A DNA stretch of 64,000 nucleotides from Mobula hypostoma. Lineage: Eukaryota. The stretch lies in contig NC_086097.1 of NCBI RefSeq assembly GCF_963921235.1, positions 63,304,001 through 63,368,000 on the forward strand. Direction: 5' to 3'. The position numbers were made by a program, and so were the translations under genes. How positions within the stretch are numbered: position 1 is the stretch's first letter; every line of letters starts with the position of its first letter. This document shows, one piece after another, positions 17,389 through 54,499 of this stretch. The notes beneath the pieces are model-generated. The model searched no databases, was not told where the DNA came from, and saw only the letters and a program-made list of their open reading frames with translations.

Positions 17389-18078
17389 CACGCTGGAGGA
17401 ACTCAGCAGGTCGGGCAGCATCCGTGGAAACGATCAGTCAACGTTTCGGGCCAGAACCCTTCGTCAGGACTGAAGAGGAAAGGGGCAGAGGCCCTATAAA
17501 GAAGGTGGGGGGAGTGTGGGAAGGAGAAGACCGGGAGGTTCCAGGTGAAAAACCAGTAAGGGGAAAGATAAAGGGGTGGGGAAGGGAGGCAGGGAGGGGA
17601 TAGGCAGGAAATGTGAAGAAGGAATAGGGGAAAGCACAATGGGTAGTAGAAGGAGGCGGAACCATGAGGGAGGTAATAGGCAACTGGGGGAGAGGGCAGA
17701 GTGAAAGTGGGACAGGGGAAGGGAGGGGGAGGGAATTCTACTACTACTACCTCTTCTACTACACCTCCTTCTACTACCCATTGTGTTTTCCCCTATTCCT
17801 TCTTCACCTTTCCTGTCTATCCCCTCCCTGCCTCCCTTCCCCACCCCTTTATCTTTCTCCTTACTGGTTTTTCACCTGGCACCTACCAGCCTTCTCCTTC
17901 CCACCCTCCCTCCACCTTCTTTATAGGGCCTCTGCCCCTTCCCTCTTCAGTCCTGCCAAAGGGTTCCGGCCCAAAACGTTGACTGATCATTTCCACAGAT
18001 GCTGCCCGACCTGCTGAGTTCCTTCAGTGTGTTGTGAGTGTTGCTTTGACCCCAGCATCTGCAGAGTATTTTGTGTTT
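17389..18078. mobile_element. Penelope tail inserted as a head-to-head inverted duplication
   Basis: 17389-17736 (-) and about 17763-18078 (+) are inverted copies; 14-bp TSD aggatgtgtatcaa at 17375-17388 and 18079-18092. Confidence 0.9.
17434..17473 (-). ncRNA. Minimal type I hammerhead ribozyme motif, intact core
   Basis: Minus strand tcagtc-CTGACGA-a-ggg(ttctgg)ccc-GAAA-cg-TT-gactga: 6-bp stem I, palindrome AACGTT. Confidence 0.78.
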
Positions 18079-32575: not shown

Positions 32576-35500
32576 TCTTGTTTAGCAGCCTCATGTGCAG
32601 CATCTTGGCAAAGGCCTTCTTAAAAATCAAAGTAAATAACATCCATTGACTCGCATTTGTCTATCCTAGCTGTTATTTCCTCAAAGAATTCCAACAGGTT
32701 TGTCAGATAGGATTTACCCCTAACCATGCTGACTTTGTCCAGTTTATCATGTGCCTCCAAGTACCCCAAAACATCATCCTTAATAATGGACTCCAGTACA
32801 CTTCCTTTAATTATTTCACTTCCCTGATTGGTCACCCAAATAAGACCATAATTCGACTAAAGTCAAATACACTGTATCCAGCCATAAAGGAATGCCATGA
32901 AACATTTTATTTTTATCATTATTATTTTTTGTAGTACTTCCTTGAAAACAATGTGTGAGAGAATTTGTGTGAAAACAACTTTCCATAAAGTGGATCATTT
33001 GTAAACCAGGGATCACTTGTGTTCTCACTACAGATTCAGCTAATTAGCAACACCCCTGAACAAGTAAACATGCAGAGAATGAATTGAAGAAATTATATAT
33101 TATAATTACCAAGGAGGTATTCATGAAACCATTGCAAGTTGATACAGGAGGCTGTGGTATAAAGCTTCAGGATGGTGCACCATGCACTAAAAACACAAAG
33201 CATGTGGTTTCCATATCATTTTCTGGTGTTTAAAGTTCATCCCCAACCACCCTGCATAAGATGCAAAGAAACCATGAACTAGAGCAAATCTCAAAGCTAC
33301 AGCTTTTATCACTTGGTAGCAGGAGGTAATTTCAGTTTAGGCATGTAAGCACAATCTAATTATGCTGTCAACTACCATAATAGAGGTTCTTAACGTGACT
33401 ATTCTCAATAGGAAGCACACATTCAAACATAGGGCCAAAATGACATTGCTTGGACCAGGAATAAAGAACTGATGTGGGAGTATGCATCTTGCATTTCTGT
33501 TAGAAAGAAGGCAGCTTGATTTTCAATTTGGAGGCACCTTGTCCTCAGGTGCAGATTCCCCGGCTGATTTCAGAGCCAAACACTCCAGGTTATTAAAAGG
33601 TCAACACACTTGCAAACAAAGCTTGTTCCCATATTCAAAGTTCACACCATTTCCTCAGAACTATTTATCCATCAATGATGCAGCAGCAGTGTCATCTGAG
33701 TAATGTGGCCAATGGCTGAGACTACTGTGTGCCCAGCAAAGCCACTCCACACACATGGAGGCTAATGCATCTACTTCCTATTAAGCAGTATGTGAGTAAT
33801 TTTCAACTGTGACTTAATGGACTTCATATCAATCACATACCAAGCAATGTACATAACACAGTATATTATATTTGTTTCATAACGTACAATAACAAAGAGG
33901 ACCATGCTAAAGTAAGAAATATAATATACTATCGAATCAATAAAACTACACCCAAATGTTTGATGCAGACAATTACAACTATCGGAAAAATTTAACTGAT
34001 ATATCTTTCACTTTAATGGATATTACTAGTGTTCCACTGATGAAACTAAAATTGAAGAAGTTATTAGAATCATAAATTTGCCCTGAATCTATAAAAAATT
34101 TTATGGTAAAAAAGTTATGCATTCTTTCACAGGATCATTGGCCTTCCTTAACAGAATTAACATCGAAGCATTTCATCTGTTTCCAAATTTAAATAAAACT
34201 GAGTTTTACCTTTTATTTTGACTCTGAATTCTTATTAAGTAAACTTCTTCCTCATTTAGAATGTATTAAAGAAATCTATATGTAAATAGTAACATTGTTT
34301 TCGGAAAGCACAAATTATGCCTTCATGGGTCTTTTTGTGTCCCTCTGGAAGGAAATGGGCAAGATTTTGTTAACTCTATCACCCCTTTTCAACTCCTGAT
34401 ACAGTTCACTCCTATCTTATGAAAATGTACTAGAGTTTGGAACTTAGGCGTCACCTTGTTATCCCTGCATGGACTCTAGTATTTAAGTGACGACCACCTG
34501 ACTTCTGGAATCTTCTGTGACTGTCACCTTGTGTCATCGCAGTGTGGATTTATGAACCCTACCTCACAGACACCTATACCTGTTCCCATGGATTTCGGAA
34601 CCTTCTGGATTGCCATCCTAGGACTCTGTTTACATTGCCTATATTTTGGGTTGAGTAAGATTTGAGAAGAACTGTTCCCAGACCTCCACAGTTGGTGAAC
34701 TAAGATGCATGGCACTGTTAATTTTTGGTTAGAGGAGTAATTGGTTTAATTGACTATTAAATTCAAAATACAGTTGTTTAACATTAAAAATCTGTGTCTA
34801 CGATCTACTGCTTCTGGCACGTAACATAAATTGGGGGCTTGTCATTCCTTTTGTCAGAGGGATCTGTTTCATTGAATGAAGAGTCATCTCCTGTGTCAGT
34901 GAAAATTCTTCGAGATACTGGGGCCTCTCAGTCACTCATGTTGGGCAATGTTCTAGAGTTTTGTGATGAGACCACCAGGGGGCAACATTGTTTCTGTACC
35001 TCTGCACAAGGTAATTTTGAAGTCAGACTTAGTTTCAGGACCTGTTAAGATAGGACTACGACCCAGTTTACTGGTGAAAGGTGTTTATTTGTTGTTTGGG
35101 AATGACCTAGCAAGTGGCAAAGTTGTCCCTGCAGTGCAGTTGATGACTAAGCCAATCACTGATGATCCAAGGATGGATTCTAATGTTTATCCATTGTTAC
35201 GTACCCCGTAACTGGATTGCCAAACCAGCAGAAATGGACCACTCATTGGAGTCTGGATTACTAGGAACTAATAAAGTTTTATTAAAGAAATAAGTAACAC
35301 TGTACTCTAATCGTACGGATATAAATGCAACAGGTTAGCAATGATAATACACACATGTACACAGAACTAGGGTAATAGGAATCAAACCAAGCTCTATCGC
35401 AGTCTAGGGGTAAAATGATCAGTCTTAAGTGACGCAGAGTTCAGTTCAGCTTAGTACAGTTCGCAGTAATCGCTGTTGTGCCGTTGGGGGGGGTGCAGTT

Positions 35501-36107
35501 TGTTTCAAGCAGACCTTTGATGTCTTCTATTCCGCTGTGGTCACCAACTGTGACCCCTCCATTCCGGATACGACCGTTCTTCCGCGGTGAACCCGACACC
35601 CAGGCAAGGGCGGACAAACACACCAGGTTCCCACCGATCGCACCTTTACACCCTGTGGGTCTATGGTCGGTTCCCGCGAACCGGACCTCCAAATTTCCAC
35701 CAACTTGTGGGGGCACACTGCTCTTTCCAGGGTCTCGTTATCTCATGATCTCGTGGTGTGTCGTGTGCCGAGCGAACCTGCTCTTTTTATCCCCCTGCTG
35801 GGGTATCGCCTGTCCATCAAACTTCAAACAGTTCGGGTTCAAAGCAACCGGTCTGTCAATATTCTGAATTGTGTTTCTTTTCCGTTAATCTCTCTCTCCT
35901 CTCTCATTAGCATTTTGAACGTTTCTCCAGTGTCTCTCTTATTTCTCTCATTAGCATCAATCACCCAATAACTTGGTTCGGCGTCACACCCCTACCCTTC
36001 AAAGGATTTTTACCGGGGTAAAAATCATGGGCATGAATGCACATTATTAGATACACACTAATATACAGGGTCATCAGCTATTCGGCTAATACAGAGAACT
36101 TTAAATT

Positions 36108-37337
36108 TCAACACCTTGACAGACAGTCAGCAATCACATTGTCCGTTCCTTTTATATGTTTTATTTTAATATCAAGTTCCTGTAAGACCAGGCTCCAACT
36201 TAGTAACCTTTTGTTTTTATCCTTCACAGTGGCCAAAAACACTAATGGGTTGTGATTAGTGTAAATTATCAGTGGTTTCCGTGCCGGACAAATATAAACT
36301 TCAAAATGTTGTAATGCTAGTATGATTGCCAGTAATTCCTTCTCCACAGTGGAATAATTTCTCTGATGGATATTAAATTTCTTAGAAAAACAAGCCACTG
36401 AGTGGTCAACCTCCTCTTTGTCTGTCTGCAACAGCACCGCCCCGGCTGCTTCGTTGCTAGCATCTGTTGCTAGGGAGAAGGGTTTTGAAAAGTCAGGCGC
36501 ATTCAGCACAGGATGGTGACACAGAATCGCCTTCAGACTCTCGAAGGCCTGTTGACAAAGGTCGTCCCACACAAACTTCGCATTCTTTGGCAAGGGCTCA
36601 GTAAGAGGGAGGGTAATATCCGCAAAGTTTTTGCAAAACTTCAGATAGTACCCCACCATCCCCAAGAACCTTCTCAGGGCTGTCTTGTCTGTCGGGGCGG
36701 GGACTTCAGAGATAGCCTGCACCTTAGCCTGCATCGGTGCCAGCTGACCCTGTCCTACCACAAATCCCAGATAAGTGACCTTCGCGTGGCCGAATTCACT
36801 TTTTGCAAGGTTCACTGTCAGGTTGGCTTCCGACAGCCTCCTAAACAGCTCCTCTACTGCCACAATGTGCTCCTCCCACATGTCACTCCAGACCACTAAA
36901 TCCTCAATATATGCTTCTGCGTTCTTTAACCCTTTTATCACTGAATTAATCATCCTCTGGAAGATCCCTGGGGCGTTTTTTATGCCAAAAGGTAAAACAT
37001 TATACTCGTATAACCCGGATGGAGTGATAAATGCTGAGATTTCTCTAGCCCGGTCAGTTAAAGGAACGCACCAGTACCCTTTCAGCAAATCGACCTTTGT
37101 GATGTACTTAGCTCTCCCTACTTTATCGATGCAATCGTCTACCCATGGGATGGGGTACACATCAGTTTTTGTGACGGCGTTCACTTTTCTGTAATCTGTA
37201 CAGAATCGTATGCTCCCATCGACTTTCAGGACAACCACACAGGGGTACGCCCATTCCGATTTGGATGGCCTAATAATATCTGTGGCTAGCATGTGTTCAA
37301 TTTCCTTCTCCACTAGCTTGCCCTTCTCCAAGTTCAT
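36108..37337 (-). CDS. Element B reverse transcriptase-RNase H (same frame, after the premature stop)
   Basis: RFCTDYRKVN, DLLKGYW, LPFG.KNAP, YIED (YxDD mutated), TDAS, EKELLA, ADCLSR. Confidence 0.92.
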   Translation of the reverse strand: MNLEKGKLVEKEIEHMLATDIIRPSKSEWAYPCVVVLKVDGSIRFCTDYRKVNAVTKTDVYPIPWVDDCIDKVGRAKYITKVDLLKGYWCVPLTDRAREISAFITPSGLYEYNVLPFGIKNAPGIFQRMINSVIKGLKNAEAYIEDLVVWSDMWEEHIVAVEELFRRLSEANLTVNLAKSEFGHAKVTYLGFVVGQGQLAPMQAKVQAISEVPAPTDKTALRRFLGMVGYYLKFCKNFADITLPLTEPLPKNAKFVWDDLCQQAFESLKAILCHHPVLNAPDFSKPFSLATDASNEAAGAVLLQTDKEEVDHSVACFSKKFNIHQRNYSTVEKELLAIILALQHFEVYICPARKPLIIYTNHNPLVFLATVKDKNKRLLSWSLVLQELDIKIKHIKGTDNVIADCLSRC

Positions 37338-37340
37338 CCT

Positions 37341-40300
37341 CTAGGGGTGTTGTTTAATAGGCTGGTCTGATGTGACAACAATATCATGCACCGTCCCTTT
37401 GCATCGCCTCGGGACATCCAGACATACGTCTGCGTACCGGTTAATTAGCTTTATCAGCGGCTCGCTCTGTTCGGGGGTTAAGTGAGAAACCTTATCAGCA
37501 AACTTGGCCAGAACAATAGAGTTCTCCAATCTGGTTGGCACCATATTTATCTTTTCAAGCTGGGTTTTCCCCTTATCATTTGACACCCCAGTCTCATTAA
37601 TTTTCGTGATAACACCAACTAGGTCTGTTTTCTGATCGTGGTAAGCTTCTAACGTATTAATGTGTACCAATTGCGTGGGCTTACGCCTGTCCGGCATTTC
37701 GATAACGTAGTTCAAAGAGTCTATCTTTTTCATCACTTTGTACGGACCGTGGAATCTCGCCTGGAGGGGCTTGGTTACCACTGGGAACAGAACTAAGACC
37801 CGATCACCCACTTGAAACACTTGTTCACGGGCATGCCTATCATACCATTGTTTCATTCTAGTTTGGGAGTGTCGTAGATTTTCTTTGGTAAGGTCACAGA
37901 TCCTTTTAAGCCTCTCACGAAATTTTAAAACATAATCAATCACATTAACTTGGACTGCCGGACTGGACCATTGCTCTTTCAGTAAGGTCAAGGGGCCTCT
38001 GGGCCAATGACTGAAGACGAGCTCGAATGGGCTGAACCCCAATGGCTCCTGAACCGTATCCCTTACAGCAAATAGCAAAAGCGGCAAAGCATCATCCCAG
38101 CCCCTAGCGTTTTCTTTACAGTAAATTTTAATCATGGTCTTTAATGTTGCATGGAATCGTTCCAATGCCCCTTGGGACTCTGGGTGGTACGCGGAGGCCA
38201 AAATCGGCTTTGCTCCCATCTCATCCAACATCCGTCGGAATGTGTGAGATGTGAAGACACTCCTCTGATCTGACTGGATTTCCCTTGGCAACCCCACCGT
38301 AGTGAAAAATTTCACAAGTGCCTTTACCACTGCGGGAGCCTTGACACTTGCCAGGGGCACCGCCTCCGGAAACCTGGTGGCGGCGCACATCATAGACATC
38401 ACATACTCTCGCCCACTTGCAGTTCTGGGCAGGGGACCGACAAAATCCACAATTATTCGGAAAAAAGGTTCCCCGAAAGCGGGTATCGGTCGAAGGGGCG
38501 CTTCAGGCAGGGCCTGATTTGGCTTTCCTACCACCTGACATAAATGACATCGCCTACAATATTCAACAATATCCTTCCGCATGTTCGGCCAGTAAAACTC
38601 CTTCATAATTCTATCAACTGTCTTCCTTACCCCAAAATGTCCACCGAGGGGTATCTTGTGGGCCAGGTTAAAAATCTCGCCCCTATAAATTTTCGGCACT
38701 ACCACCTGGTGCACCACCCCCCATTCCTCATCTGCGGGCATGGTACTTGGTCTCCATTTCCTCATTAGTACTCCCTCCTTCACATAATAGCCCACTGGCT
38801 CCCTTTTTAATTCTGCTTCAGAGAGAGCTGTCTCCGTCAAAACCATTAGCTCCTTGTCTCGTTCCTGTGCCTGTATAAATTCCTTCCTTGCTAATGATAA
38901 GTCTACCTCAACTCCCTCACTTCCTTCCATTTCACTATGCTCCTTCTTGTCACTTTCTAAACCCTCCTGGTGCAAGGCTGGTAAAAACATCTCAGCTAAA
39001 TCTACATTCGCTTCGGCAACCTTTCTGGACATGCGCCGAGTCACTGCGCAAACGGGATAAACCTGTGAGTCTATGGGTGGGTCTTCAATCCTGGCAGGTT
39101 TGCTTGTCAGTTTTACTGCTGGGTACACCTCTCCACCGGCGAGGTCCATACCGAGTAAGACCGCCACATCTTCCATCGGTAGTTCGGGCCTCACTCCTAT
39201 CGTGACCGGTCCGGAGACCAAGTCACTTTTTAGGTGTATCTGGTGCAAAGGTACTGCTTCAGTCCCTTTCCCAATGCCTTTTATCACACTGACCTCCCCA
39301 GTCTCAGTCTCTGAACTAAAATCTAAAACACTCCTTAAGATCAGTGACTGACAAGCTCCAGTGTCTCTCCAGATCCATACTGGAACTGGGTTTGACCCCT
39401 CCTTCACCGACACCAATCCGGCTGAAGTAAACTTCTCGCGCCCTTCCTGAACTCTATCAGACCTCTTCTCCCCTAGCGGTTTGTTTGCCGGCTCAATACA
39501 GCCAGTCAGAGTCATTGTTTTTCCTTTCCCCATCTCCTTCTTTGGGGCAAAGCACCTGGACGCAAAGTGACCGGCTTTCCCACAATTATAGTATACAACC
39601 CCAGGAGACTTCCTACCAAACTGCTTCCTATCTTCCTTATCCTTCTCACTAGTCCCCGGCTTACTTTCTGGCTTTTCCGGAGGACTCTCTCCGCCCTCTC
39701 GACTACCCTTCTGGTAACTTTTACTCAGGGTAAATTTCGCTTTGTGTGTTAATGCGTAATGATCCGCTAACTTAGCAGTTGCTGCTAAGGTTTCTGCCTC
39801 TTTCTCATCTAGATAGGGCCTCATACCTTCAGGGACACAACCTTTAAATTGCTCAATCAGTATTAGCTGTAGCAGTCTGTCATAATCCCCATTGACCCCT
39901 TTCGAGGCGCACCAACGCTTACAATACATCTGCATCTCACGGGCAAACTCTAAATACGTGCGGCCCCACTGCTTCCTCACATTCCGGAACCTCTGCCGGT
40001 ATGCCTCCGGGACCAACTCATTAATCCTGAGTATCGCCTCTTTCACCACATCATACCTCTGGGCATCTTCTGCAGACAATGCCAAGTAAGCTTGCTGAGC
40101 TTTCCCTTTAAGTACGCTCTGAAGCAAAACAGCCCACTTATCCCTCGGCCAGTCCTGACTTGCAGCAACTTTTTCAAAATTTAGAAAGTACCGATCAACA
40201 TCGGCCTCCTCAAATGGGGGAACCAGCCTAACCTCCTGGGTCGCCCTGAACCCTCCACCTTGGTTCGGCATGGGCCCCTGTGCTAACGTCATCTTTAACT

Positions 40301-40652
40301 TCTTCAGCTCAAATTCCCTTTCCTTCTGCTTCTCTCTGTCTTGCTGTTCTAACTGCTTCTCTTCTTGTTCTAGCTGCCTTACCCGGAACTCGTGCTCGAG
40401 TCTCAATTTTTCCATCTGCAGCTGCACCGCCTCTCCACGAGGTTTGCCCATAGATACCACCTCCAGCTCCCCTTGGGGAAACACACCTTTAGATACATAG
40501 TGCTCAATGACAGCTCTGTGCATCTCCGTTCTCCTCATTGTCGACTTCACCTTAAAAAGATTCAACCGTTTGGCAACAGTCGCCAATTCTGATTTCCTGG
40601 CATCCTCTAATGTCTCCAAGGTTGGTGCCTTTAGAAATTCCTCAATCTCCAT
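37341..40652 (-). CDS. Element B gag-protease-integrase part of the polyprotein (1103 aa)
   Basis: SCAN-like capsid C-terminal domain (VPEAYRQRFR..LILIEQF..LADHY), degenerate zinc knuckle, RDTGA protease, HHCC, DFVGPLP / SDQ / GALERF core, GPY motif; ends at an in-frame TAG. Confidence 0.92.
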   Translation of the reverse strand: MEIEEFLKAPTLETLEDARKSELATVAKRLNLFKVKSTMRRTEMHRAVIEHYVSKGVFPQGELEVVSMGKPRGEAVQLQMEKLRLEHEFRVRQLEQEEKQLEQQDREKQKEREFELKKLKMTLAQGPMPNQGGGFRATQEVRLVPPFEEADVDRYFLNFEKVAASQDWPRDKWAVLLQSVLKGKAQQAYLALSAEDAQRYDVVKEAILRINELVPEAYRQRFRNVRKQWGRTYLEFAREMQMYCKRWCASKGVNGDYDRLLQLILIEQFKGCVPEGMRPYLDEKEAETLAATAKLADHYALTHKAKFTLSKSYQKGSREGGESPPEKPESKPGTSEKDKEDRKQFGRKSPGVVYYNCGKAGHFASRCFAPKKEMGKGKTMTLTGCIEPANKPLGEKRSDRVQEGREKFTSAGLVSVKEGSNPVPVWIWRDTGACQSLILRSVLDFSSETETGEVSVIKGIGKGTEAVPLHQIHLKSDLVSGPVTIGVRPELPMEDVAVLLGMDLAGGEVYPAVKLTSKPARIEDPPIDSQVYPVCAVTRRMSRKVAEANVDLAEMFLPALHQEGLESDKKEHSEMEGSEGVEVDLSLARKEFIQAQERDKELMVLTETALSEAELKREPVGYYVKEGVLMRKWRPSTMPADEEWGVVHQVVVPKIYRGEIFNLAHKIPLGGHFGVRKTVDRIMKEFYWPNMRKDIVEYCRRCHLCQVVGKPNQALPEAPLRPIPAFGEPFFRIIVDFVGPLPRTASGREYVMSMMCAATRFPEAVPLASVKAPAVVKALVKFFTTVGLPREIQSDQRSVFTSHTFRRMLDEMGAKPILASAYHPESQGALERFHATLKTMIKIYCKENARGWDDALPLLLFAVRDTVQEPLGFSPFELVFSHWPRGPLTLLKEQWSSPAVQVNVIDYVLKFRERLKRICDLTKENLRHSQTRMKQWYDRHAREQVFQVGDRVLVLFPVVTKPLQARFHGPYKVMKKIDSLNYVIEMPDRRKPTQLVHINTLEAYHDQKTDLVGVITKINETGVSNDKGKTQLEKINMVPTRLENSIVLAKFADKVSHLTPEQSEPLIKLINRYADVCLDVPRRCKGTVHDIVVTSDQPIKQHP

Positions 40653-42360
40653 TTCTGCTGTTTGCCCTTTCTTTCTTTCGGGAATTTTAACCCAATCAAT
40701 TTACCCAGTTCCAAATTTGGCGTTCAAAATTGCGGACGAGATCCCCACTTATGTTATGTACCCCGTAACTGGGTTGCCAAACCAGCAGAAATGGACCACT
40801 CGTTGGACTCTGGATTACTAGGAACTAATAAAGTTTTATTAAAGAAATAAGTAACACTGTACTCTAATCGTACGGATATAAATGCAACAGGTTAGCAATG
40901 ATAATACACACATGTACACAGAACTAGGGTAATAGGAATCAAACCAAGCTCTATCGCAGTCTAGGGGTAAAATGATCAGTCTTAAGTGACGCAGAGTTCA
41001 GTTCAGCTTAGTACAGTTCGCAGTAATCGCTGTTGTGCCGTGTGGGGGAGGGGTGCAGTTTGTTTCAAGTAGACCTTTGATGTCTTCTATTCCGCTGTGG
41101 TCACCGACTGTGAACTCTCCGTTCCGGATAGGACCGTTCTTCCGCGGTGAACCCGGCACCCAGGCAAGGGCGGACACACACACCAGGTTCCCACCTATCG
41201 TACCTTTACACCCTGTGAGTCTATGGTTGGTTCCCGCGAACCGGACCTCCAAATTTCCACTAACTTGTGGGGGCACACTGCTCTTTCCAGGGTCTCGTTA
41301 TCTCGTGATCTCGTGGTGTGTCGCGTGCCCAGCGAACCTGCTCTTTTTATCCCCCTGCTGGGATATCGCCTGTCCATCAAACTTCAAACAGTTCAGGTTC
41401 AAAGCAACCGGTCTGTCAATATTCTGAATTGTGTTTCTTTTCCGTTAATCTCTCTCTCCTCTCTCATTAACATTTTGAATGTTTCTCCATTGTCTCTCTT
41501 ATCTCTCTCATTAGCATCAATCGCCCCATAACTTGGTTTGGCGTCACACCATCCTGCACAGTAACTCGAGCAATGGCCAAGAAGCTTGCCAACGCAGATA
41601 GTCCTGTGCAGAATGGTTCCGCTACTCATGATAGCCTAAAACAGGGCTCAGGTTTTGATGACCTGTCAGTGACTTCCCTTCCTACACTGTTTGACCAAGA
41701 TCCTTGTATCAGGTCTGACTATAAAGATTTGTCTCTGTCTGGGAAGGAGTTTATAACGGAACAGACCAGAGACCCTGTGATTGCTGCATTGAGGGTTACA
41801 GCTCTCTCAGGTGATAAGATTGAGAAAATGCCAGTTGGGTACTAGGAGACCAGCTGATATCTCTGCAAGTGAGGAATGGGCAATTGTTCACCAGGTTGTA
41901 GTTCCTATGGTCTATAGGAATGATATTTTAACCTTGGCGCATAGTATGCCCTTGGGTGGCCATCTTGGTGTGAATAAAACTGTGGACAAGGTTTTGAAAC
42001 AATTCTTCTGGCCTGGTTTGAGGAAAGATGTTTTGATACTTTGCCGAACTTGTCACACTTGTCAGGTTGTGGGTAAACCTAATCAGGTCACCCCAGAGGC
42101 TCCTCTACAGCTTATTCCTGCGTTTGGTGAACCCTTTTCCAAAGTTATTGTGGATTGTGTTGGCCCATTGCCAAAGACTAGAGCTGGCCATCAGTATTTG
42201 CTAACCATCATGTGTACAGCATCTAGATTTCCAGAAGAAATACCTCTCAGGAATATCAAAGCTCCAACTGTGTTGAAGGTTCTCATAAAATTGTTCACCC
42301 TATGTGGTTTGCCAAAAGAAATCCAGTCTGATCAAGGATTTTTTATGTCAGGATTATTCC

Positions 42361-42808
42361 CAGGGGTGCAGTGGTAGCCGGAGCACTCTGGAACACATTC
42401 GGCACCTCTTTAAGAAAAAAAACAAAATAAACAAGCTTAAAATAAACAAAATTAGGTGCCACCCAGGGTGATTTGAGTATCTCAGAAGCTGCTGATCTCC
42501 TGGGGTTTTTACGCACAAAAAACTCTGAAGTTTACAAAGAATGGTAAAAACAAAATAATCCAGTGAGTGGCTGTTCCGTGAGTGAAAACATCTTGTTAAA
42601 TCCACTCTCTGGAACTTTTTTTGTTTTTGGCACCATTCTTTGTAAACTCCAGAGTCTGTTGAGTGTAAAAATTCCAGGAGATCAGCAGTTTCTGAGATAC
42701 TCAAATCACCCTGGGCAGCAGCTAATTAATTAGCTTGTTTATTTCGGCTTTTTTCTTAAAGAGGTGCCGAACGCGTTCCAGGACACTCCAATTACCACTG
42801 CATTCCTG
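42361..42808. mobile_element. Palindromic hAT-type MITE with Tc1 transposase fragments
   Basis: CAGGGGTGCAGTGGTA...TACCACTGCATTCCTG TIRs; 8-bp TSD attattcc/gttattcc (42353-42360, 42809-42816); both arms contain SISE(T/A)ADLL..VYKEW. Confidence 0.85.
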
Positions 42809-45182
42809 GTTATTCCAGCAGGCAATTTACGAACTAGGAACCAAACAGCTTACATCTTCTGCGTATCATCCAGAATCCCAAGGGGCCTTAGAAAGATTCC
42901 ATTCTACCCTCAAAACCATGATTAGAACATGCTGTTTTGAAAATGAGAAGGTTTAGGATGAGGGAGTTCACTTGCTTCTATTTGCAGTAAGGTAGTCTGT
43001 GCAAGAGTTCCTAGGCTTTAGCACCTTTGAGCTTGTGTTTGGGCACCAGGTTCAAGGTCCTTTTGCCTTGTTAAGGGAGCAATGGACCAATAATGACCTG
43101 CATATAAATTTGTTGGACATTGTTTTAAAATTCAAGGACAGATTGCAGAGGGCTTGCTACCTAGCTAGGAAGAAACTAAAATCTGCTCGGAGTAAAATGA
43201 AGGCCTGGTATGATAAGAGAGCCAGAGACAGGACATTTAAGCCAGGAGATAAGGTGCTTGTTCTTTTCCCTGTGCAGACAAATCCTCTGCAGGCCAGATT
43301 CCATGGTCCCTATGAAATTGTGTCCGAGGTCAATGACGTGGATTATGTTGTCAAAACTCCAGATAGAAGGAGGCCAACACAGCTCTGTCACATTAGCATG
43401 CTTAAGCCGTACTATGAAATGCCAACTGCAGTTGTGACGGTTGCTGTGTATCAGGATGGATCTGGGCTCTCTGAAGATTTTATGGATAATCCTTCTGAGG
43501 CCCGCTTTAAACCAAACATTGTTCGGGCTAGATTGCCAAATTCCACTATTTTAGAAAACTTTGATGAAAAACTGGCTCATTTACAACCACAGCAGCAGCA
43601 GCAAATGAAGCAGTTGATCATGAAATTTCGGGATTTGTCCCCTAATGTTCCAAAAAGAACAATGGTAGCCTCACATGATGTGGATGTTGGTGATGCCAAT
43701 CCTATAAAACAGCATCCGTATTGCATGAATGTTGAAAAATGTAAATTGGCTGATCAAGAAATTGAGTACATGTTAGAAAATGGTATTATTAGGCCTTCTA
43801 CTTCAGATTGGAGCTCAGCTTGTGTCATGGTACCTAAACTAGATAGTAGTATCAGGTTTTGCACTGGTTACAGAAAGGTGACTGCTATAAAAAAAATGGA
43901 TGCTTATCCAATCCCTAGAGTAGATGATTGTGTAGACAAGGTTGGAAAAGCTAAGTTTCTTATAAAAATCAATCTGTTAATAGGGTATTGGTGTGTTCCA
44001 CTACCAGATAGATGTAGAGAAATTTCTGCATTTGTAACATCTTCTGGGTTGTATGAATACAATGTTCTGCTATTTGGAATGAAAAACGCTCTGGGAACAT
44101 TTCAGAAAATGATTAATTCTGTAATTCAAGGGTTAGAACACACAGTCGCCTATATTGATGACTTGGTCACAGGAAATGACAAATGGGAAGCCTGTTAAAG
44201 TGAGTTTTTTTCTGGTTAGATAATTTGTTGACACTTAAAATGACTTTGACCACCAAACCTCTATTTTAACTGTTTGACAAAGGACTGTGGATTGAGTCCA
44301 CCACAATGGGCTTCCTATAAGGTGTGAATACCAGATGCTTCTGGTACCATAGTTTGACCAGATGCTGTAGTTTCAAAGACAGTATTATCTATATATTATA
44401 AATATTAATTGTCTTCTATGTTAGCACGTAAAATGCCAAATAAATGAATTGTGGATTGAACTAAAGGCTGTGGATACCAACACAGACATGTGGCGTCGGA
44501 AGGAAAGGATGAAATCCGAAGGTGTGATGTTTGTATGTAGCTTCAAGAGAATGCATTGTATATAACTTTTTAATTAGCGATTGCCTTTGTGTTTAGCATA
44601 TAAATATCGAGCCCACATTGAGCTAGCAGACCTTTCTGCGGAAAGCGTCTCTGTCCGTAAGATGCCTGCTGTACCTTGTTGTGTCGAATAAAGAAACTGC
44701 TTTGTATCTACCAGTGACTCTGTTTCTCCAGTAATTTCATCCACGCTACAACATTTGGTGTCAGAATTGGGATACCTTCGTGACCCGTTGTGTGGTCAGC
44801 GTTCCTAGCAGTCTTAAGTTGGTGAGTATTTTTCTAAAATAACACTCACACTTGGATCTGTTCGGTCGGTGGACACACGGGAACACGAGGTATCACGAAC
44901 ATGGAGAGCTGAACTGGTAGATATAAATGTAGTGTGTGCATGTGCATATGTGTTTATGTAAGTGAGGAATCTTTGCATGTTAAACTTGGGCAACCAGTTG
45001 CAAAAGGTGGTAACCAACAGTATGGTTCAAGACGTTTGGGGAGCTACATTTTAGTGTATGTGTTTGCAAGTCTGATGCAGGGGAATACAGCAGGCATCAT
45101 GAGTTCGAGTACTCAAAAGTGGCAGATTGTGGAATACATACTCTGCGGTTTTAAGTAAGTACTGTTTAACTGCTACCTGTCT

Positions 45183-46568
45183 GTGATATCTTGCGTAGTG
45201 TGGGAATTAGTATGGAGATATCTCAGGGAGAGGTTTTACCCAGAGAAATCTACCAGAATGGCACCTATTGAGATCAGGCAACGTCAGGTTGAGAACCCTG
45301 ATGATCCGAGCCAGCCCTTGACCTTGATTATGACTATTCATAAGCCCTTCACCCCCAGGAAGAAACAGAGCATTTTGTCCGAGTTGCCCTCACTTAAAGT
45401 CGCCTGTGGGAATTCAGAGTTCTGGCATAAGCTCAAGGAAATGGTTGAAATTCACCAGATGCACTCTGAAGATATATATGTGTTAGTGAAAGCCAAGTGC
45501 CCGAGGAATATGTGGGACAGTATGGCCCAAGGGGTGCCGGATGGTACATGGGCAACTACCGGAAGCGCCAGTAATGAAGAAGGATATCACTCTTTTAAAG
45601 GGGAAGTGAGGCAGCGGCTGGGGGGAGGCGAGAGTAGCTGGGGAACGATAATGGCAATGATTCAAACAGCTGACGAGGCAGCCATGGATTATGCAGAACG
45701 TAAATACCGAGTATACGAGAAGTATTCAGGGTTGGATAATCCAGGGATGGATGACCCAGTCTTCCTAAAAATGCTGAAGGAAGGCCTGAGCTCAGCCCAC
45801 AAGGATGTTTTAGATTTAGGCATAACGGTGGGGTCCGACTACTCTGCGATAGTTTCGTGGGCCAGTGAGATAGACCGAAGAAAAGGCGAGAGAAATCGTA
45901 AAGTGGGTATAGTGGATGCAGCTGCTGTGATGTCCCGGAGAGTTTGTTTTGCTTGCCGGCAGCCATGGCACATAGCAAAGGACTGCTGGACCAGGTATAA
46001 GGCAGTGAAGGAGTTGATATGCTACAGCTGTGGCCTATCGGGACATGGCTAGAGACAGTGTCCAAAAGGGAGGGGGAAAACCCAGGCAAAGGTCACAGCG
46101 GACACCCGGTCACTCATCCCATCAGCAACCAGTCCAAATGTCGATCAGATCAAAGAGTTAGTGACAGCGCCTCTTAAGGCAGTAAAGGATGTGGCAGCGG
46201 GCTCCACGGCCAGCTCTGATGACTCACGGATGTATACTACGGCCTTGTTAGGGGGACGGCAATGCAATATGTTAGTAGACACAGGGGCATTGGTATCGAT
46301 AACAGACTTACCCTTACCAACAACCGGACAGGCCAGTTATATTAGGAGTGTAGGAGGGAAAACAGTAAAAGCAGAAAGAAGCGAATTGCAGATACTAGAA
46401 ATCGGGGGAGTGCAGCTTCCAGTTTATTTCTGGGTATGTCCAAATAGTGAGGGCACGATCATTGGAATAGACATCTTAAGGAAAGCAGGAGCTGTTATAG
46501 ATTCGGGAAAGGGAGAAATAATATGGACAAGTCAGGGGCAGCGAACTCGCACAACCTGTCTAGTATAG
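45183..46568 (+). pseudogene. Element C gag-protease frame with one in-frame stop
   Basis: Two CCHC knuckles (CFACRQPWHIAKDC; CYSCGLSGHG*RQC); the frame continues to LVDTGA and IIGIDIL; ORFs 45183-46052 and 46161-46568 are in the same frame. Confidence 0.85.
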
Positions 46569-47656
46569 GCACAGCTGCCCTGATCGTCAGAGACTGGAGC
46601 CAGGATGGCGTATATGGGTTACCTTGTCAGCAGCTCCCAGCTGTGTGGGCTGGAGACAAGCAAGATTGTGGACAGGTGAAGACAGACCCAGTTAAAATAG
46701 AGGAGGGTCTGTATAAATCCTCTAAGCAGGACCCTATACAAACTGACACACTGACCACTGTTCTGGGTATAGCGAAGGAACAAAAACACCAGGGGATACT
46801 CAGAGAGACTGCGACCACTCCAGAACATAAAGTTTTCCCAGTTTCTCCAAGCGCAGACATTGCTGCGAATAAGGCAGCAGGGGAACAAGAGGCAATTGAA
46901 ATTGCAAGTGTGCAGGAGGAAACGACAGAAGCCAGCTTAGTAAAATTATATGAAGACGTAGAGGCAGAAGAGAAGGAAAAATGGAGGAGAAAAGGAGCGA
47001 AGGAGGGACTAGATGGGTGCTGGACACATGGGAATGTTGAGAAATTCTGCCCCCGTTGTATAATTTGTGCCTGGCATAACCCTGGTAAGGGCATAAAGCT
47101 ACAGCTGGCAAATCAGCCTCAGCCGAGGGGACTCTGGGAAAACATCCAGATAGACTTCACAGGGCCCCTGCCAAAAAGCAGGGGGAAAAGTTGCTGTCAA
47201 CTTAAAGTATTAAAGGACCGAGTGAAACAACAGCAGCGAATCACTGATCAGAAAGAGCCAGAGGGAAAGGGGAAAGGGGAGAGGGGACAGCCCGGCGACC
47301 AAGTTATGGTGAGGGTGCTGCCAGAAAGGCCAGGGTTTGCCCCGAGGTGGATAGGACCACAGATGGTACTCTTAACGAATGATACGTGTGTCTGTGTACA
47401 GACTCGGCGAGGCAGCCAGCGGAAACACTGGACTCAGGTTAAAGCATATGACTCACCCTCTTGTTGCTCCCACAGAAGGAGTGGGGAACCAAGTGTACCC
47501 GGTAACCATGTAATTACAGAGAACCTAAGAGAGGAACACCAGCCGGCCATGGCAGACCTGACCACAGCTGATGAAAACATACCCGGAGAAAACGCAAAGG
47601 CAGAAAACGCTGAGAGCATGGCAGAAGACACTGAGAATGTTTTGGAAAAACCATGA
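46523..47656 (+). CDS. Element C collapsed pol remnant (open 377-aa frame, no catalytic cores)
   Basis: RT N-terminus (VWA..KQ.P..QGILRE), RNase H end (ADIAANKAA), INT CxxC plus IQIDFTGPLP, INT C-terminus (PGDQVMV..PRWIGP..VLLT..HWTQVK); no YxDD or complete DDE. Confidence 0.7.
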   Translation: MDKSGAANSHNLSSIGTAALIVRDWSQDGVYGLPCQQLPAVWAGDKQDCGQVKTDPVKIEEGLYKSSKQDPIQTDTLTTVLGIAKEQKHQGILRETATTPEHKVFPVSPSADIAANKAAGEQEAIEIASVQEETTEASLVKLYEDVEAEEKEKWRRKGAKEGLDGCWTHGNVEKFCPRCIICAWHNPGKGIKLQLANQPQPRGLWENIQIDFTGPLPKSRGKSCCQLKVLKDRVKQQQRITDQKEPEGKGKGERGQPGDQVMVRVLPERPGFAPRWIGPQMVLLTNDTCVCVQTRRGSQRKHWTQVKAYDSPSCCSHRRSGEPSVPGNHVITENLREEHQPAMADLTTADENIPGENAKAENAESMAEDTENVLEKP

Positions 47657-49557
47657 ATCGCCTGCTGAAGTGTGATGACGATGGTACTCTGTAAAGAAGG
47701 CTGGTTGCTGAAGGAAGATGATCAATTTTATAGTATAGTATAGAAAATTATTTGGGAAATAGACGGGGAGGGATTTTTGAGTTAAAGCAGAGACGGCAAG
47801 TTCCACCACTTTGATGGCATTTCAGACTGCACACGGCATCTGAAAGCAGTCACCCCAGTCTGAGGAGCAGGGCCCTTTTCAGCAGTTTGACCAGTTATCC
47901 ACCAGACAGTTCGGAAGGGGGTGCCACCGGGGAGAGGTCCTTGCAGACATTTACATAGAGGCCACCCCATCCCCTTCCTGTACATCGATGTGAGAGCCTG
48001 TGGGTGCTCCTGGAAGGAGAGTTTCAGCGACCAGAGGCTAAAGGGCTGAAGACAAAGAAATGTGATTAAGATGCAGTCAGCCTGCAGGCACACGAGAGGA
48101 GCTGCATTTCTAAAGACTTGGAACAGCCTCTCTGCTTAACATTTGGTAGGTAGCGATTAGGTAATGCTAAGATAGATATCGAGGTACGTAATTCGGGGGG
48201 GGGGGGTTTGAGACAGGGCATTTTTGCAGCCCTATTTGAGCAGATCCTCCTAGATTGGCCTTTCCTGATACAAATTTAATTTTTGTCCAGGAGGGCCAAG
48301 AGGAGGGACTGTTAGAGTGAGTTTTTTGGATAGATGATTTGTTTACACTTAAATGACTTTGGCCACCAAACTTCTATTTTAACTGCTTGACAAAGGACTG
48401 TGGATTGAGTCCACCACAATGGGCTTCCTATAAGGTGTGAATACCAGATGCTTCTGGCACCATAGTTTGACCAGATGCTATAGTTTCAAAGACAGTATTA
48501 GCTATACATTATAAATATTAATTGTCTTCTATGTTAGCACGTAAAATGCCAAATAAATGTATTGTGGATTGAACTAAAGGCTGTGGATACCAACCCAGAC
48601 ATGTGGCGTTGGAAGGAAGGATGAAATCCGAAGGTGTGATGTTTGTATGTAGCTTCAAGAGCATGCATTGTATATAACTATTTAATTAGCAATTGCCTTT
48701 GTGTTTAGCATATAAATATCGAGCCCACATTGAGAAAGTAGACATTTCTGCGGAAAGCGTCTCCGTCCGTACGATGCCTGCTGTACCTTGTTGTGTCGAA
48801 TAAAGAAGCTGCTTTGTATCTACCAGTGACTCTGTCTCTCCGGTAATTTCACCCACACTACAACAAAGCCCATATCTCTGCAGTAGAAGAGCTGTTTGAA
48901 AGGCTCTCAAAGGCCAACCTTACAGTTAACTTAGCTAAGAGTGAATTTGGCCATGCCACTGTGACCTATCTTGGTTATGTTGTAGGTCAGGGTAGATTGG
49001 CTCCTGTTCAGGCACAAGTTCAGGCTATTTCTGAGTTTCCCGTTCCAACTGGTAAGAAGGCTTTTAGAAGATTTCTGGGAATGGTCGGATATTATCGCAA
49101 GTTCTGTAAGAACTTTGCTGATATTGTCCTTCCATTAACTAACATCCTGAAGAAGGGTGTGAAATTTGTCTGGACAGAGCCTTGCCAGAAGGCATTTGAC
49201 AAATTGAAGGCCATCTTGTGTCATCAACCTGTGCTCAGGTCAGCTAACTTTGCAATGTCATTTTCCACAGCAGTGACTGCCAGTACCGAGGCTGCAGGAG
49301 CGGTGTTATTACAAAGGGATGATCATGATGATGTTGACCATCCTGTGGATTACTTTTCAAACAAATTCAATAAGCATCAAAGAACTTATTCCGCAATAGA
49401 GAAGGAATTATTGTCACTTGTTTTGTCTTTGCACCATTTTCATGTTTATGACCGTACAGCTCAGAAACCACTTGTAGTACATACAGATCATAATCCATTG
49501 GTGTTCTTGAGTAGGATGAAAAACAAAAAATCGGAGGTTGTTGAATTGGAGTTTGAT

Positions 49558-51797
49558 TTTATACTTTATACTTTATACTTTATTGTTGCCAAACAATTGG
49601 TACTAGAACGCACAATCATCACAGCGATATTTGATTCTGCGCTTCCCACTCCCTGGATTACAAATATTAAATGTTAAAGATATTAAAAATAGTTAAAATT
49701 AGTAAATATTAAAAATTTAAATTATAAATCATAAATAGAAAATAGAAAAATGGGAAGTAAGGTAGTGCAAGAAAACTGAGAGGCAGGTCCGGATATTTGG
49801 AGGGTACGGCCCAGATCCGGGTCAGGATCCATTCAGCAGTCTTATCACAGTTGGAAAGAAGCTGTTCCCAAATCTGGCCGTACTAGTCTTCAAGCTCCTG
49901 AACCTTCTCCCGGAGGGAAGAGGGACGAAAAGTGTGTTGGCTAGGTGGGTCCTTGATTATCCTGGCAGCACTGCTCCGACAGCGTGTGGTGTAAAGTGAG
50001 TCCACGGATGGAAGATCGTTTTGTGTGATGTAATGCGCTGTGTTCATAATCTTCTGCAGCTTCTTTCAGTCTTGGACAGGACAACTTCCATACCAGGTTG
50101 TGATGCACCCTAGAAAAATGCTTTCTACTGTGCATCTAAAAAAATTAGTGAAGGTTTTAGGGGACAGGCCAAATTTCTTTAGTTTTCTCAGGAAGTGAAG
50201 GTGCTGGTGGGCCTTCTTGGCAGTGGACTCTGCTTGGTTGGACCAAGTCAGGTCATTTGTGATATTGACCCCAAGGAACTTAAAGCTTTTGACCTGTTCC
50301 ACTTGCCCACCACCGATGTAGATTGGGTTGTACAGTCCACTACTCCTTCTGAAGACAATAACCAATTCCTTCATCTTGCTGACGTTGAGGGATAGGTTAT
50401 AGTCTTCGCACCATGCCACCAGGTTCTTAATTTCCTCTCTGTACTCAAACTTATCATTACCCGAGATACGGCCTACGATTGCTTGTGTCATCAGCAAACT
50501 TATATATTGAGTTTGATATAAAACTTGGCTACACAATCATGGGTGTACAGTGAGTACAGCAGGGGGCTAAGTACACAGCCTTGTGGGGCACCGGTGCTCA
50601 GATTGATTGTAGAGGAGAGCTTGTCTCATATTTTTACAGCCTGGCTCCTGTCTGTGAGGAAGTTCAAAATCCAGCTGCAGATCTGAGTGCTAAGGCCCAG
50701 GTTCCGGAGCTTAGGAATCAGTTTATTTGGAACGATGGTATTAAAGGCAGAGCTGTAGTCAATGAAAAGGAGCCTTATGTATGCGACTTTATTCTCCAGA
50801 TGTTCTAAGGAAGAACGTAGGGCCAGAGAGATGGTATCTGCAGTTGACCTGTTGCTCCGGTAGGCGAATTGCAAAGCGTCGAGGTTGACCGGTAGGCTGT
50901 GGTTGATGTGTGCCAAAACCAATCTCTCGAAGCACTTCATAGCAATTGATGTCAGAGCCACAGGTCGATAGTCATTCAGGTATGCCACCTTGCTCTTCTT
51001 CGGCACTGGGATTATCGTTGCCTTCTTAAAACATGAGGGGATCTTAGACTGAAGCAAAGAGCAGTTGAAGATGTCAGCAAACACTCCAGCTAGCTCGCTT
51101 GCACAGGCCCGGAGAACCTGTCCTGGGATGCCATCTGGGCCCGTCGCCTTCCTTGAATTTATCTTCAGGAAGGCCCTTCTAACGTCCTCCTCGGTGACAA
51201 TGAATCTCGATGCCACCAGGTCCGGTTCATCCGGAGGGAGCGGGACACTCCTCTTCTGTTCGAATTTTGCGTAGAATACGTTAAGTTCATCAGGAAGAGA
51301 AACGCCACAGTTATTGATATTCCCAGCCTTTTCTTTGCGCACCATGATCTCATTTAGACCCTGCCATAGTCTACTGGCATCCCTTTGGTTAGCCTGGGCT
51401 TCCATCTTGGCTCGATATTGCCTCTTGGCGCCCTTAATGGCTTTCCGGAGTTCATGCCTGGATTCCGTGTAGCGACTGGTATCCCCAGACCTAAAAGCCG
51501 CAGCTCTAGCCTTTAAAAGGGACTTGACCTCATAATTCATCCAAGGTTTCCAGTTAGGGAATACCCGGATCGTCTTGCGAGACACACAGTCCTCCGTGCA
51601 TTTCCAAATAAAGTCCGTGACAGCTGAGGCATACTCATTGAGGTTAGTTGCCGAGTCCTTGAATATTAACCAGTCCACCGATTCAAAGCAGTCACGGAGG
51701 ACCTCATCCATTTCTTCTGTCCAACATGACACTACTTTTGACACCATGACCTCCCGCTTCAATTTCTGTTTGTAAGCCGGGAGGAGGAGTATGGCCT
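49558..51797 (-). mobile_element. Rex1/Babar-type LINE, 5'-truncated, inserted in element A RNase H
   Basis: 398-aa frame with KATGPDG, NDYRPVALTS, LQFAYR, LFIDYSSAFN; (tttatac)3 tail. Confidence 0.92.
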
Positions 51798-52121
51798 GGA
51801 GTATAATCTCACGATAACTCACATTAAAGGTAGAGAAAATATAATTGCAGATTGTCTTTCTAGGTGTTAAGCTTGCAATGTACTTTTGATAACAAAATGA
51901 GATGATTATTATACATAATATCTTGTATTGCCTCTTGAATGTGTTGAGTTACTTGGAAACTATTGGGATTGAATGGAATCCGATATTTATATATGCCCCA
52001 CAATATATAAATGTTGTTCCATAGTGTGATATATGGTAATTGTATATGTATTATTTCACATGTAATTTGTAGCTAAAAATTTTGCTGTTACAGATCAAAA
52101 CTTTCCCTTCTTGGGGGGAGG

Positions 52122-52958
52122 TGTTAAATATCAACTTTTTTTAATTAACCGTAAGTGTCATTTAGGCGCGCCTGGACGAGGTGGGGGGGATGACGTCATA
52201 TAACAAACGCGCGGAGGCTTTTTCTATTCAATTCGAGAGGTTTCTGGAAAATCCGTGAGTTAAACGATTAAACGGACCGTGAGCTACCAGCGAGAGAGTG
52301 AATTGAGTTGAGTGAGTTGAAGAGTTCACTATAGCAGTGGGCAGTCCCAATATTTGTCCGTGTCAGAAGACTGAGATAATTTGCAGCACACAGTGCATAT
52401 TGGATACGTGACTGTCACTTTGTATGATCCATACTTGGATTTCTGGAGTATTCTATGGTGACCACTTTTTGTTAACCTATACATTCGGGATTCGGGTGTG
52501 TTACGCGGTGACCACTTGTGTTAAGGAATATTCCGTGACTGTCACCTTGTGATATCCATACGTTGATTTCAGAACTTAGGCGTCACCTTGTTATCCCTGC
52601 GTGGAGTCTAGTATTTAAGTGACAACCACTCGACTTCTGGAATCTTCTGTGACTGTCATCTTGTGTCATCATAATGCGGATTTATGAACCCTACCTCACA
52701 GACACCTGTACCTGTTCCAGTGGATTTCGGAACCTTCTGGATTGTCATCCTAGGACTCTGTTTACATTGTCTATATTTTGGGTTGAGTAAGATTTGGGAA
52801 GAACTGTTCCAAGACCTCCACAGTTTGTGAACTAAGATGCATGGCACTGTTAATTTTTGGTTAGGGTAGTAAGTGTTTTAATCGACTATTAAATTGAAAA
52901 TATAGTTGTTTAACATTAAAAATCTGTGTCTGTGGTCTATTTCTGCTGGCACGTAACA
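52122..52958 (+). repeat. Element A full LTR
   Basis: PPT ttggggggagg then TGTTAAAT...CGTAACA; the 3' part aligns with 34440-34826. Confidence 0.9.
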
Positions 52959-54499
52959 TAAATTGAGGGCTCGTCATTCCTTTTGTGTTAGAGGGATCTG
53001 TTTCAGTGAATGAAGAGTCACCCCCTGTGCCTGTGAAAATTCTTCGAGATACTGGGGCTTCTCAGTCACTCTTGTTGGGCAACGTTCTAGTGTTTTGTGA
53101 TGAGACCACCACTGGTGAAGTGAATCTTATACAAGGCATTGGGGGCAATATTGTTTCTGTAGCTCTGCACAAGGTAATTTTGAAGTCAGACTTAGTATAC
53201 CAGCATTTTTGGAAATAGCTTTCCTCCATACAAAATAGAAAGAGACCATTCTAACCTGTGCTCCCATTTATGTTCACTGACTTTTCACTCATCCTTTTCA
53301 ATCTTTTCTCAGATTTACACAATATTTTTCTGTTCCTTTGCTTTCCGAATATTTAAATTTGTTTGTGAAAGGTTTCCAGCTTTTTGGTTCACAATCTCTT
53401 TTTGAGGTATCAGGTTCCGCATTCCAACCATTCACTGTGAAGATTTTTTTCTTTCCCATTGGATTTATTTAGCACCAATCTTGTATTCTTGACTTCTGGT
53501 TTAGAAACACCTTACAAATGAAGATATTTTCTTTAAATCTACACTTTTGCTTTATGCTCTAGAGATTTAAAATATTCTTATATGTCTGCAGTCCCCTGCA
53601 TTTTTATTACAAGGCCTAATGCAAGCCTCTACTGTCTGGGGATGTTGCTGTCTTCTGGATTCCATATCAAATAACACAACTTCAACTTTCACCGCCGGTA
53701 TCAGAATTGGCCATTTCTGCTGTGAGTTATCCAATAGTGATGACAGCTCAGCTTTATCTCGCCATTAACACAGCTGGCATCTCCCACAGCCCTGCACTTT
53801 GCAACATTTGTATTATGAACTGTTTCCATTAACCCACTGACCCAAGGAACTTTAAAGTTATCCCCACAGCAACCCCGGCTTCACTCAGATTCAGGTTCAC
53901 ATTTATTTATTTATTTATCACATGTACAAAGAAAAATATAGTGTGTCGTTTGCGTTAATAACCAACACAACTGGCAGGCATTCCAGTGCTGACATAGCAT
54001 GCACACAATGTTCAGCAGAACAACACAAGCGGCAACAAAACAAAAACAAAACAACCAGAGCAAGCAAGCCCCATTCCCACCCACTCACACACACAGACAG
54101 GCGTCCAACCCCAGGACAGGCAGCCTCCCAGCTTCCAACCTCCTGTCCTTCACCAGGACTCGCAGACATCAGGCCTCCAATCTCCAGACAAACGAACCTG
54201 GGGCTTTGACCTCTTTACTCATCCACCACTAAACTTCAACCTTTGCCTCTGACCTCCGGAGTCACTGACTTCTGACTCTGGGACTTGCAACCTGGGGGGA
54301 AGTCACTGACCTTTGTCCTTGAGATCTGTTGACCTTGGTCCTTAACTATGGTGATTGCTGGGGATCGCTAGTCTTCGTCCTCGGTGCCTGTCAACCCAAC
54401 CACTATCCTCGGGGATCTTTTTTGTTCTTTTCACAAAGATATACCTGATTATGGAGGGCCTGAGTGAAATCCTAGTAAGTTTTTGTTTTTTTTTTGGTC

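Follow-up and report, generated by a model that had tools for sequence, protein, structure and literature searches.

A dead retroviral insertion in the ray Mobula hypostoma and its apparently reverse transcriptase-less family

A stretch of 64,000 nucleotides of the Mobula hypostoma genome (NCBI RefSeq assembly GCF_963921235.1, contig NC_086097.1, positions 63,304,001 to 63,368,000 of the forward strand; hereafter the window) contains a retrovirus-like element at 44193-48865 on the plus strand. This copy is dead. It is probably an insertion of a non-autonomous family of endogenous retroviruses (ERVs) in rays, which multiplied after losing env, apparently matrix, and the reverse transcriptase (RT) core together with RNase H. 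Contigs from public sequencing runs indicate that the RT/RNase H deletion is common to many copies, and the family looks RT-less. The initial annotation, made from the letters of the window, had proposed a non-autonomous, many-copy family of retroviral origin, and this is supported by the sharing of the RT/RNase H deletion with copies in three other organisms.

Junctions of the pol remnant and their sharing among copies

The pol-like frame at 46451-47656 spans 401 codons from stop to stop, and the 377 open codons reported initially are confirmed from its first ATG. It aligns as four pieces to residues 98-190, 736-795, 839-893 and 1057-1141 of P0160, a full-length Pol protein, with a score of 583 against 99 for the best of 30 shuffles. 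The three jumps in pol noted earlier map on P0160 as described, with losses of ~545, 43 and ~163 codons at junctions 1, 2 and 3, all in frame. Gone from this copy are the YVDD motif of RT, the tether, most of RNase H, and the HH part, second D and E of integrase; the first catalytic Asp of integrase is kept. The earlier description of the element as catalytically empty holds in this copy for RT, RNase H and integrase and not for the protease, in which DTG is present.

For the family comparison, contigs of four public runs out of 24 candidates were aligned to the 5' long terminal repeat (LTR) and internal region at 80% likeness. Three runs are of DNA type and come from three organisms; the fourth, X13, is only guessed to be RNA. 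For loose ends, joints and substitutions, the contig tables list 24 out of 4,730, 15 out of 885 and 40 out of 1,445. The DNA-type runs yielded 12,839, 12,133 and 9,912 aligned contigs covering all 30 bins, and at the LTR end 86 and 76 contigs exit into mutually unlike flanks (agreement 0.36). On this contig evidence, the element is a member of a many-copy family in rays.

In the four runs, 32, 20, 23 and 9 contigs cover place 46849 on junction 1, and the best of them span 46804-46894, 46808-46890, 46721-46977 and 46818-46880. Junction 1 is bridged in all four runs by at least 31 letters on each side of 46849, and it does not appear among the listed loose ends. The RT/RNase H deletion is therefore shared by family copies, as in non-autonomous ERVs of the mouse intracisternal A-particle (IAP) 1Δ1 type, in which a deletion is common to many copies.

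Contig pieces stop at junction 2 in every run, and this junction therefore appears not to be shared. From 46999 the best reach is 35, 34, 35 and 34 letters, so that pieces end at 47032-47033 in all four runs; in two runs, the pieces at 47073 start at 47027-47030. In run X9, the three rows on either side of junction 2 reach 35-47 letters, the shortest of 21 coding rows with at least 20 contigs, against 75-159 for the others. Most copies appear to have other sequence at this place. At junction 3 none of the rows listed is bridging, and one X13 contig (record 15, ~82% identity) begins at 47203 after 37 unaligned letters, which hints against sharing there as well. The earlier expectation that copies have the same junctions thus stands for junction 1, apparently fails for junction 2, and meets one diverging contig at junction 3. 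Integrase may be more complete in many copies than here. The leader is common to some diverged contigs up to the capsid (records 9 and 17); others align only from the capsid ATG (records 10 and 22), so that fuller relatives of the family may exist.

Conservation of the remaining pieces suggests which part was lost first. Of 34 conserved columns, the RT stub retains 18 and intact P0160 has 27 (p 0.04), and the protease and integrase pieces together keep 48 of 71 compared with 52 of 71 (p 0.58), which suggests that RT function was lost long before the integrase pieces. Active members of the family would have joined capsid, nucleocapsid, protease, the RT stub and the integrase region in a single polyprotein. 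Their RNA would have been packaged intracellularly, and a related helper provirus would have provided the RT. On the model of IAP 1Δ1, translation of the fused frame may aid its own RNA in cis, a benefit by which in-frame deletions would be favoured. Both deletions in integrase probably occurred later, in this copy or in a small sub-lineage, and a stop in the second zinc knuckle and a frame shift before pol would have arisen after insertion. Contigs at ~82% identity hint at fuller copies, but no helper with the same LTR and primer site was found among the contigs; judged by sequence identity, the known full-length relatives are too distant to be that helper.

Several points weigh against this explanation. 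No helper was found, the closest intact Pol proteins being 33-67% identical by segment. Junction 2 is read from distances to piece ends rather than from seen sequence, a break at 46965 could equally explain the row at 46999, and depth does not dip at junctions 2 and 3, neither of which is among the listed loose ends. Sharing is judged from contigs of other organisms' runs instead of the assembled Mobula hypostoma genome, and from contig tables seen in the part stated above. Within this copy, the difference between the RT stub and the other segments is not significant (p 0.20). A single shared in-frame junction is expected by chance one time in three, and 4 of the 18 listed differences in the pol remnant are synonymous, as expected without selection.

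A further-reaching form of the explanation, which we put forward tentatively, is that active members borrowed RT and RNase H alone: a stop-free polyprotein with a whole working integrase and without matrix or env, present in many copies across rays. If true, such an element would assemble and mature particles of its own, carry out their integration itself, and come from a poorly described retrovirus lineage.

The initial annotation held that the family replicated in exactly its triple-deleted form, and in such a sub-family the pol remnant would be a catalytically empty spacer kept open by selection. All three junctions lie in frame, for which the chance is 1 in 27, and depth is steady in the bins of junctions 2 and 3, which the listed loose ends do not include. 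The best run holds 0.36 of the sampled words, and the window's organism is perhaps outside the runs and may hold a younger sub-family. The stop of pieces at 47032-47033 in all runs, the short reach around junction 2 in X9 and the contig that diverges at junction 3 argue against this form, as do the integrase remnants, which are as conserved as in intact relatives. We consider it unlikely.

Selection on the open frame, also suggested earlier, finds no support in the listed pol-remnant differences. In neutral simulations at 2.6% substitution, with indels not modelled, 26% keep the 401-codon frame open, so that an open frame is unremarkable at this copy's age. Among the gag-pro differences 5 of 8 listed are synonymous, compared with about a third of random transitions. 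The listed differences are mostly private changes of this copy and are thus uninformative on the active family; one listed as a change to a stop is an artefact of two neighbouring places scored separately. These figures are also what would be seen if the family were RT-less and its fused frame unselected, with shorter RNAs copying well and the frame open by luck: only junction 1 is shown to be shared, and its in-frame state is no great coincidence. However, none of the best-supported 12 small indels (103 more exist) falls in 46451-47640, and the capsid, protease and integrase pieces are well conserved, leaving an unselected frame improbable. Most improbable is an ordinary autonomous provirus family from which this copy decayed by deletion after insertion, a reading that draws on intact relatives in sharks and on ~82% identity contigs that run into other sequence at the capsid start (records 10 and 22) and junction 3 (record 15), and that is largely refuted by the bridging of junction 1 in four of four runs of three organisms, with only 2-3 in 100 aligned DNA records running on unlike the element.

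Relatives and retroviral lineage

Gag relatives of the element are found in Mobula (90% identity), Heterodontus, Rhincodon, turtles and teleosts. The Mobula hypostoma protein P0003 is 90% identical over the Gag match and carries gag and protease in one frame. Full-length relatives from Heterodontus (P0004), Mustelus (P0155, P0157, P0160) and Pimephales (P0088) belong to the same Gag family and match the Pol segments; they keep RT and the tether, and most also keep RNase H. A tether, a second RNase H and an RT placed among retroviruses are present in the full-length relatives, and this copy keeps the RNase H tail only. The predicted protein P0088 (Pimephales promelas) also lacks the integrase core, either a real deletion or a gene-model artefact.

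An RT-tether tree was built from 31 rows chosen of ~80 Pol proteins; this copy is not included because its RT core is gone. P0004, P0155, P0157 and P0160 form a clade at 99/96, which joins teleost elements at 88/92. These shark-type relatives fall outside a 100/99 gamma-/epsilon-like clade of ten rows, labelled from hosts and Pfam in a tree with no named epsilonretrovirus row, and an epsilon origin is unlikely on this placement. The relatives split from three gypsy-like rows at 100/100, and they carry two RNase H-type domains, unlike Ty3/Gypsy elements. P0104, which matches by eye the Pol of snakehead retrovirus (SnRV) in a row of the supplement of PMC7947760, sits in an open fork of the tree, which lacks ERV-L and foamy rows, and is 38% identical to P0160 over RT-tether.

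The Gag of spumaretroviruses is not known to carry CCHC knuckles. A spuma origin was rejected on the two knuckles of the element, its capsid fold, and the RT of P0004, which matches murine leukaemia virus (MLV) at E 8.5e-63 and foamy virus at E 2.6e-42. A lokiretrovirus origin was rejected as well, on indirect evidence: the relatives read LPQG, and every loki row that includes this stretch in the seen part of the PMC7947760 supplement reads PFG, the tree itself holding no loki row. The shark, skate and chimaera rows in the seen part of that paper's genome table carry no loki mark. On sequence grounds, then, the relatives, which come from sharks, teleosts and turtles, belong to the canonical retroviruses and are not gypsy, loki or foamy elements. 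Of the basal origin first proposed (spuma-, epsilon- or loki-like), the retroviral and non-gypsy part holds, loki and spuma find no support in motifs, knuckles and scores, and epsilon is disfavoured by the tree.

SnRV-related ERVs are known in the elephant shark according to PMC4422223, and retroviral LTRs make up 0.15-0.63% of batoid genomes in figures excerpted from bioRxiv 2026.10.27.761883. Word-indexed protein searches with the pol remnant gave no match at near or longer lengths, a weak negative as relatives were later reached via Gag. No full-length relative locus was found in metagenome contigs or viral contigs. The literature searched held no description of the family; Repbase and Dfam lay outside the search, so a named family may exist.

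Structure of the element and its surroundings

Both LTRs, the 5-bp target-site duplication and the tRNA-Leu-type primer site reported initially are all confirmed at 44188-48870, as is the splice-donor-like sequence of the leader (Table 1). Together with the purine tract, these features match those of canonical Retroviridae-derived ERVs and mark a reverse-transcribed, integrase-made insertion. The LTR pair aligns with 527 matches and 28 mismatches (Kimura two-parameter distance 0.052, or 5.2% apart); with two rates quoted in PMC4422223, our own arithmetic puts the insertion at ~12 to 120 million years, to be read as a range only. The insertion lies within a gypsy RT whose frame continues on both sides. 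Self-comparison revealed no second copy of the element elsewhere in the 64-kb window, and no host function is shown for this single dead copy.

Table 1. Features of the element in window coordinates; pLDDT is the predicted local distance difference test score.
Feature	Position	Strand	Basis
Left target-site duplication AAGCC	44188..44192	+	Host gypsy RT frame resumes beyond insertion
5' LTR, 561 nt, TG...CA, AATAAA at 44687	44193..44753	+	Self-comparison
Primer-binding site, tRNA-Leu type	44756..44773	+	11 of 12 letters as in the tRNA-Leu site in an excerpt of PMC8905726
Predicted splice-donor-like GGTGAGTA	44821..44828	+	Sequence motif
Gag from capsid domain (beta-hairpin followed by helices); upstream matrix not detected	45258..45944	+	Model pLDDT 87 and fold matches
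Two CCHC zinc knuckles, second with in-frame TAG at 46050-46052	45945..46061	+	Sequence; Mobula P0003 open at same place
Retroviral protease with DTG, in frame with gag	46236..46499	+	Pfam RVP E 1.7e-07; 52% to P0157
Frame shift, protease versus pol remnant	46540..46568	+	P0157 aligns in frame 1 to 46550, in frame 3 from 46547
Linker and first RT part, ending before catalytic core	46565..46843	+	P0160 98-190, 39%
Junction 1: RT core, tether and RNase H gone (~545 codons)	46843..46853	+	P0160 alignment; common to family copies
RNase H last helix and integrase start	46853..47032	+	P0160 736-795
Junction 2: 43 codons including integrase HH gone; probably not shared by most copies	47026..47034	+	P0160 alignment; contig piece ends
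Integrase CxxC and first catalytic Asp	47033..47197	+	37 of 55 identical to P0160 839-893
Junction 3: ~163 codons of integrase core gone	47195..47203	+	P0160 alignment; X13 contig starting at 47203
Integrase linker and C-terminal beta-barrel	47198..47449	+	P0160 1057-1141; blocks 281-330 pLDDT 84-93
3' non-coding region, no env trace	47657..48297	+	Frame and Pfam scan
Polypurine tract	48298..48308	+	Upstream of 3' LTR
3' LTR, 556 nt, TG...CA	48310..48865	+	Paired with 5' LTR
Right target-site duplication AAGCC	48866..48870	+	Same 5 bp on both sides

Gag starts at the ATG at 45258, and its predicted model opens with a beta-hairpin (pLDDT 87). The best fold matches of this model are the capsids of human T-lymphotropic virus 1, MLV, bovine leukaemia virus and human immunodeficiency virus, with four matches at E up to 0.001, consistent with an orthoretroviral capsid fold. 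Five long relatives (P0004, P0007, P0009, P0013 and P0020) begin with 117-221 residues that are unmatched in the element, so matrix is apparently missing or unrecognisable in this copy. Between the knuckles and protease the gag stop is absent in both this copy and Mobula P0003, unlike several more distant Gag proteins that terminate shortly past the knuckles. In intact relatives, protease and RT form a single frame; the pol remnant here lies in another frame than protease, and other copies differ nearby (loose ends at 46556 in 32 and 29 contigs). The frame shift near 46550 probably arose as damage to this copy or its sub-lineage. The initial description of gag-pro as kept is not confirmed: the two knuckles and the DTG protease are recognisable, but the second knuckle is broken by its TAG, the frame shifts before pol, and no matrix was found. 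In the leader, a sub-threshold Pfam hit to 7tm_7 (E 0.002) was dismissed as noise. Copies differ in leader structure around ~45110-45190: joints have their end at 45186, and in three runs the reach at 45072 is always 40 letters.

The model of the pol remnant averages pLDDT 53 and is of low confidence outside the C-terminal barrel, where blocks 281-330 reach 84-93. That integrase tail looks retroviral rather than gypsy-like, as first read, which is supported by a Pfam match to the MLV integrase C-terminal domain (E 0.021, below the cut-off) and a fold match to 2m9u (root-mean-square deviation 2.5 over 55 columns, E 0.004). Neither the env of canonical ERVs nor the Mononegavirales-like env of lokiretroviruses has a counterpart in this copy: in agreement with the initial annotation, no env-like Pfam match was found in the three forward frames of 47440-48309. 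A purine-only patch at 47270-47286 differs from 25-34 contigs per DNA run, with loose ends at 47287. A further 330-nt skip, 46956-47287, occurs in one contig in each of three organisms and may be another deletion variant or an old shared insertion.

Elsewhere in the window, the host gypsy element occupies 41793-44198 and 48847-49677 (+), with integrase before RT, and was split by the ERV just after its YIDD motif; it includes a 450-nt imperfect palindrome (78%) at 42360-42809. A related gypsy element at 35195-41550 (-) has direct repeats of 800 nt with 96% likeness and two long frames (1119 and 410 residues) with one stop between. Other features are an inverted self-match at 17386-18034 (271-nt arms 93% alike), an RT frame of long interspersed nuclear element type (440 residues) at 50626-51948 (+), and a 600-nt repeat pair 88% alike at 34440-35033 and 52572-53196.

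Comparison with known systems

Among the closest comparisons are the snakehead retrovirus and clade Huo, and elephant-shark CmiERV lineage I, described in PMC4422223 and passages of PMC6001957 as canonical fish retroviruses outside gamma/epsilon, known in cartilaginous fishes and with similar RT motifs. A sister relation to the snakehead retrovirus is not claimed, given the 38% identity and open fork of P0104. Zebrafish BHIKHARI (excerpts of bioRxiv 2024.03.25.586437) and MaLR, ETn and VL30 (excerpts of PMC6466679) are likewise non-autonomous retroviral LTR families of vertebrates, but these are gag-only or non-coding, and BHIKHARI is loki-derived. The RTVLH2-like subgroup of HERV-H comprises hundreds of copies with pol and env deletions shared across subsets of loci; it differs in its class I lineage, and the seen sections of PMC6629862 make no claim of one open fused frame.

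A close parallel in strategy is mouse IAP 1Δ1, a non-autonomous ERV that likewise lacks env, carries an internal deletion and has gag and pol fused in frame. According to passages of PMC6466679 and PMC7411935, 1Δ1 outnumbers or out-jumps its helper, and its fusion product works in cis but depends on Gag and Pol provided in trans. IAP is betaretrovirus-like and its deletion removes part of gag and pol in these accounts, whereas the ray element keeps capsid, nucleocapsid and protease and loses matrix and RT/RNase H; the cis effect has been tested for IAP, whereas in the ray element it is suggested by analogy. The borrowing of an enzyme from a helper is a known strategy, seen in this case in a retrovirus lineage that has been little studied. 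Mouse IAP is the best-known example of non-autonomous ERVs in which gag and pol are fused in frame, and a ray case from another retroviral lineage would, if true, be the same solution arising twice: to lose env and membrane targeting, drop the enzymes that can be borrowed, and keep translating. As the copies are many and spread over several species, sequence comparison alone could test which proteins have to be provided in cis.

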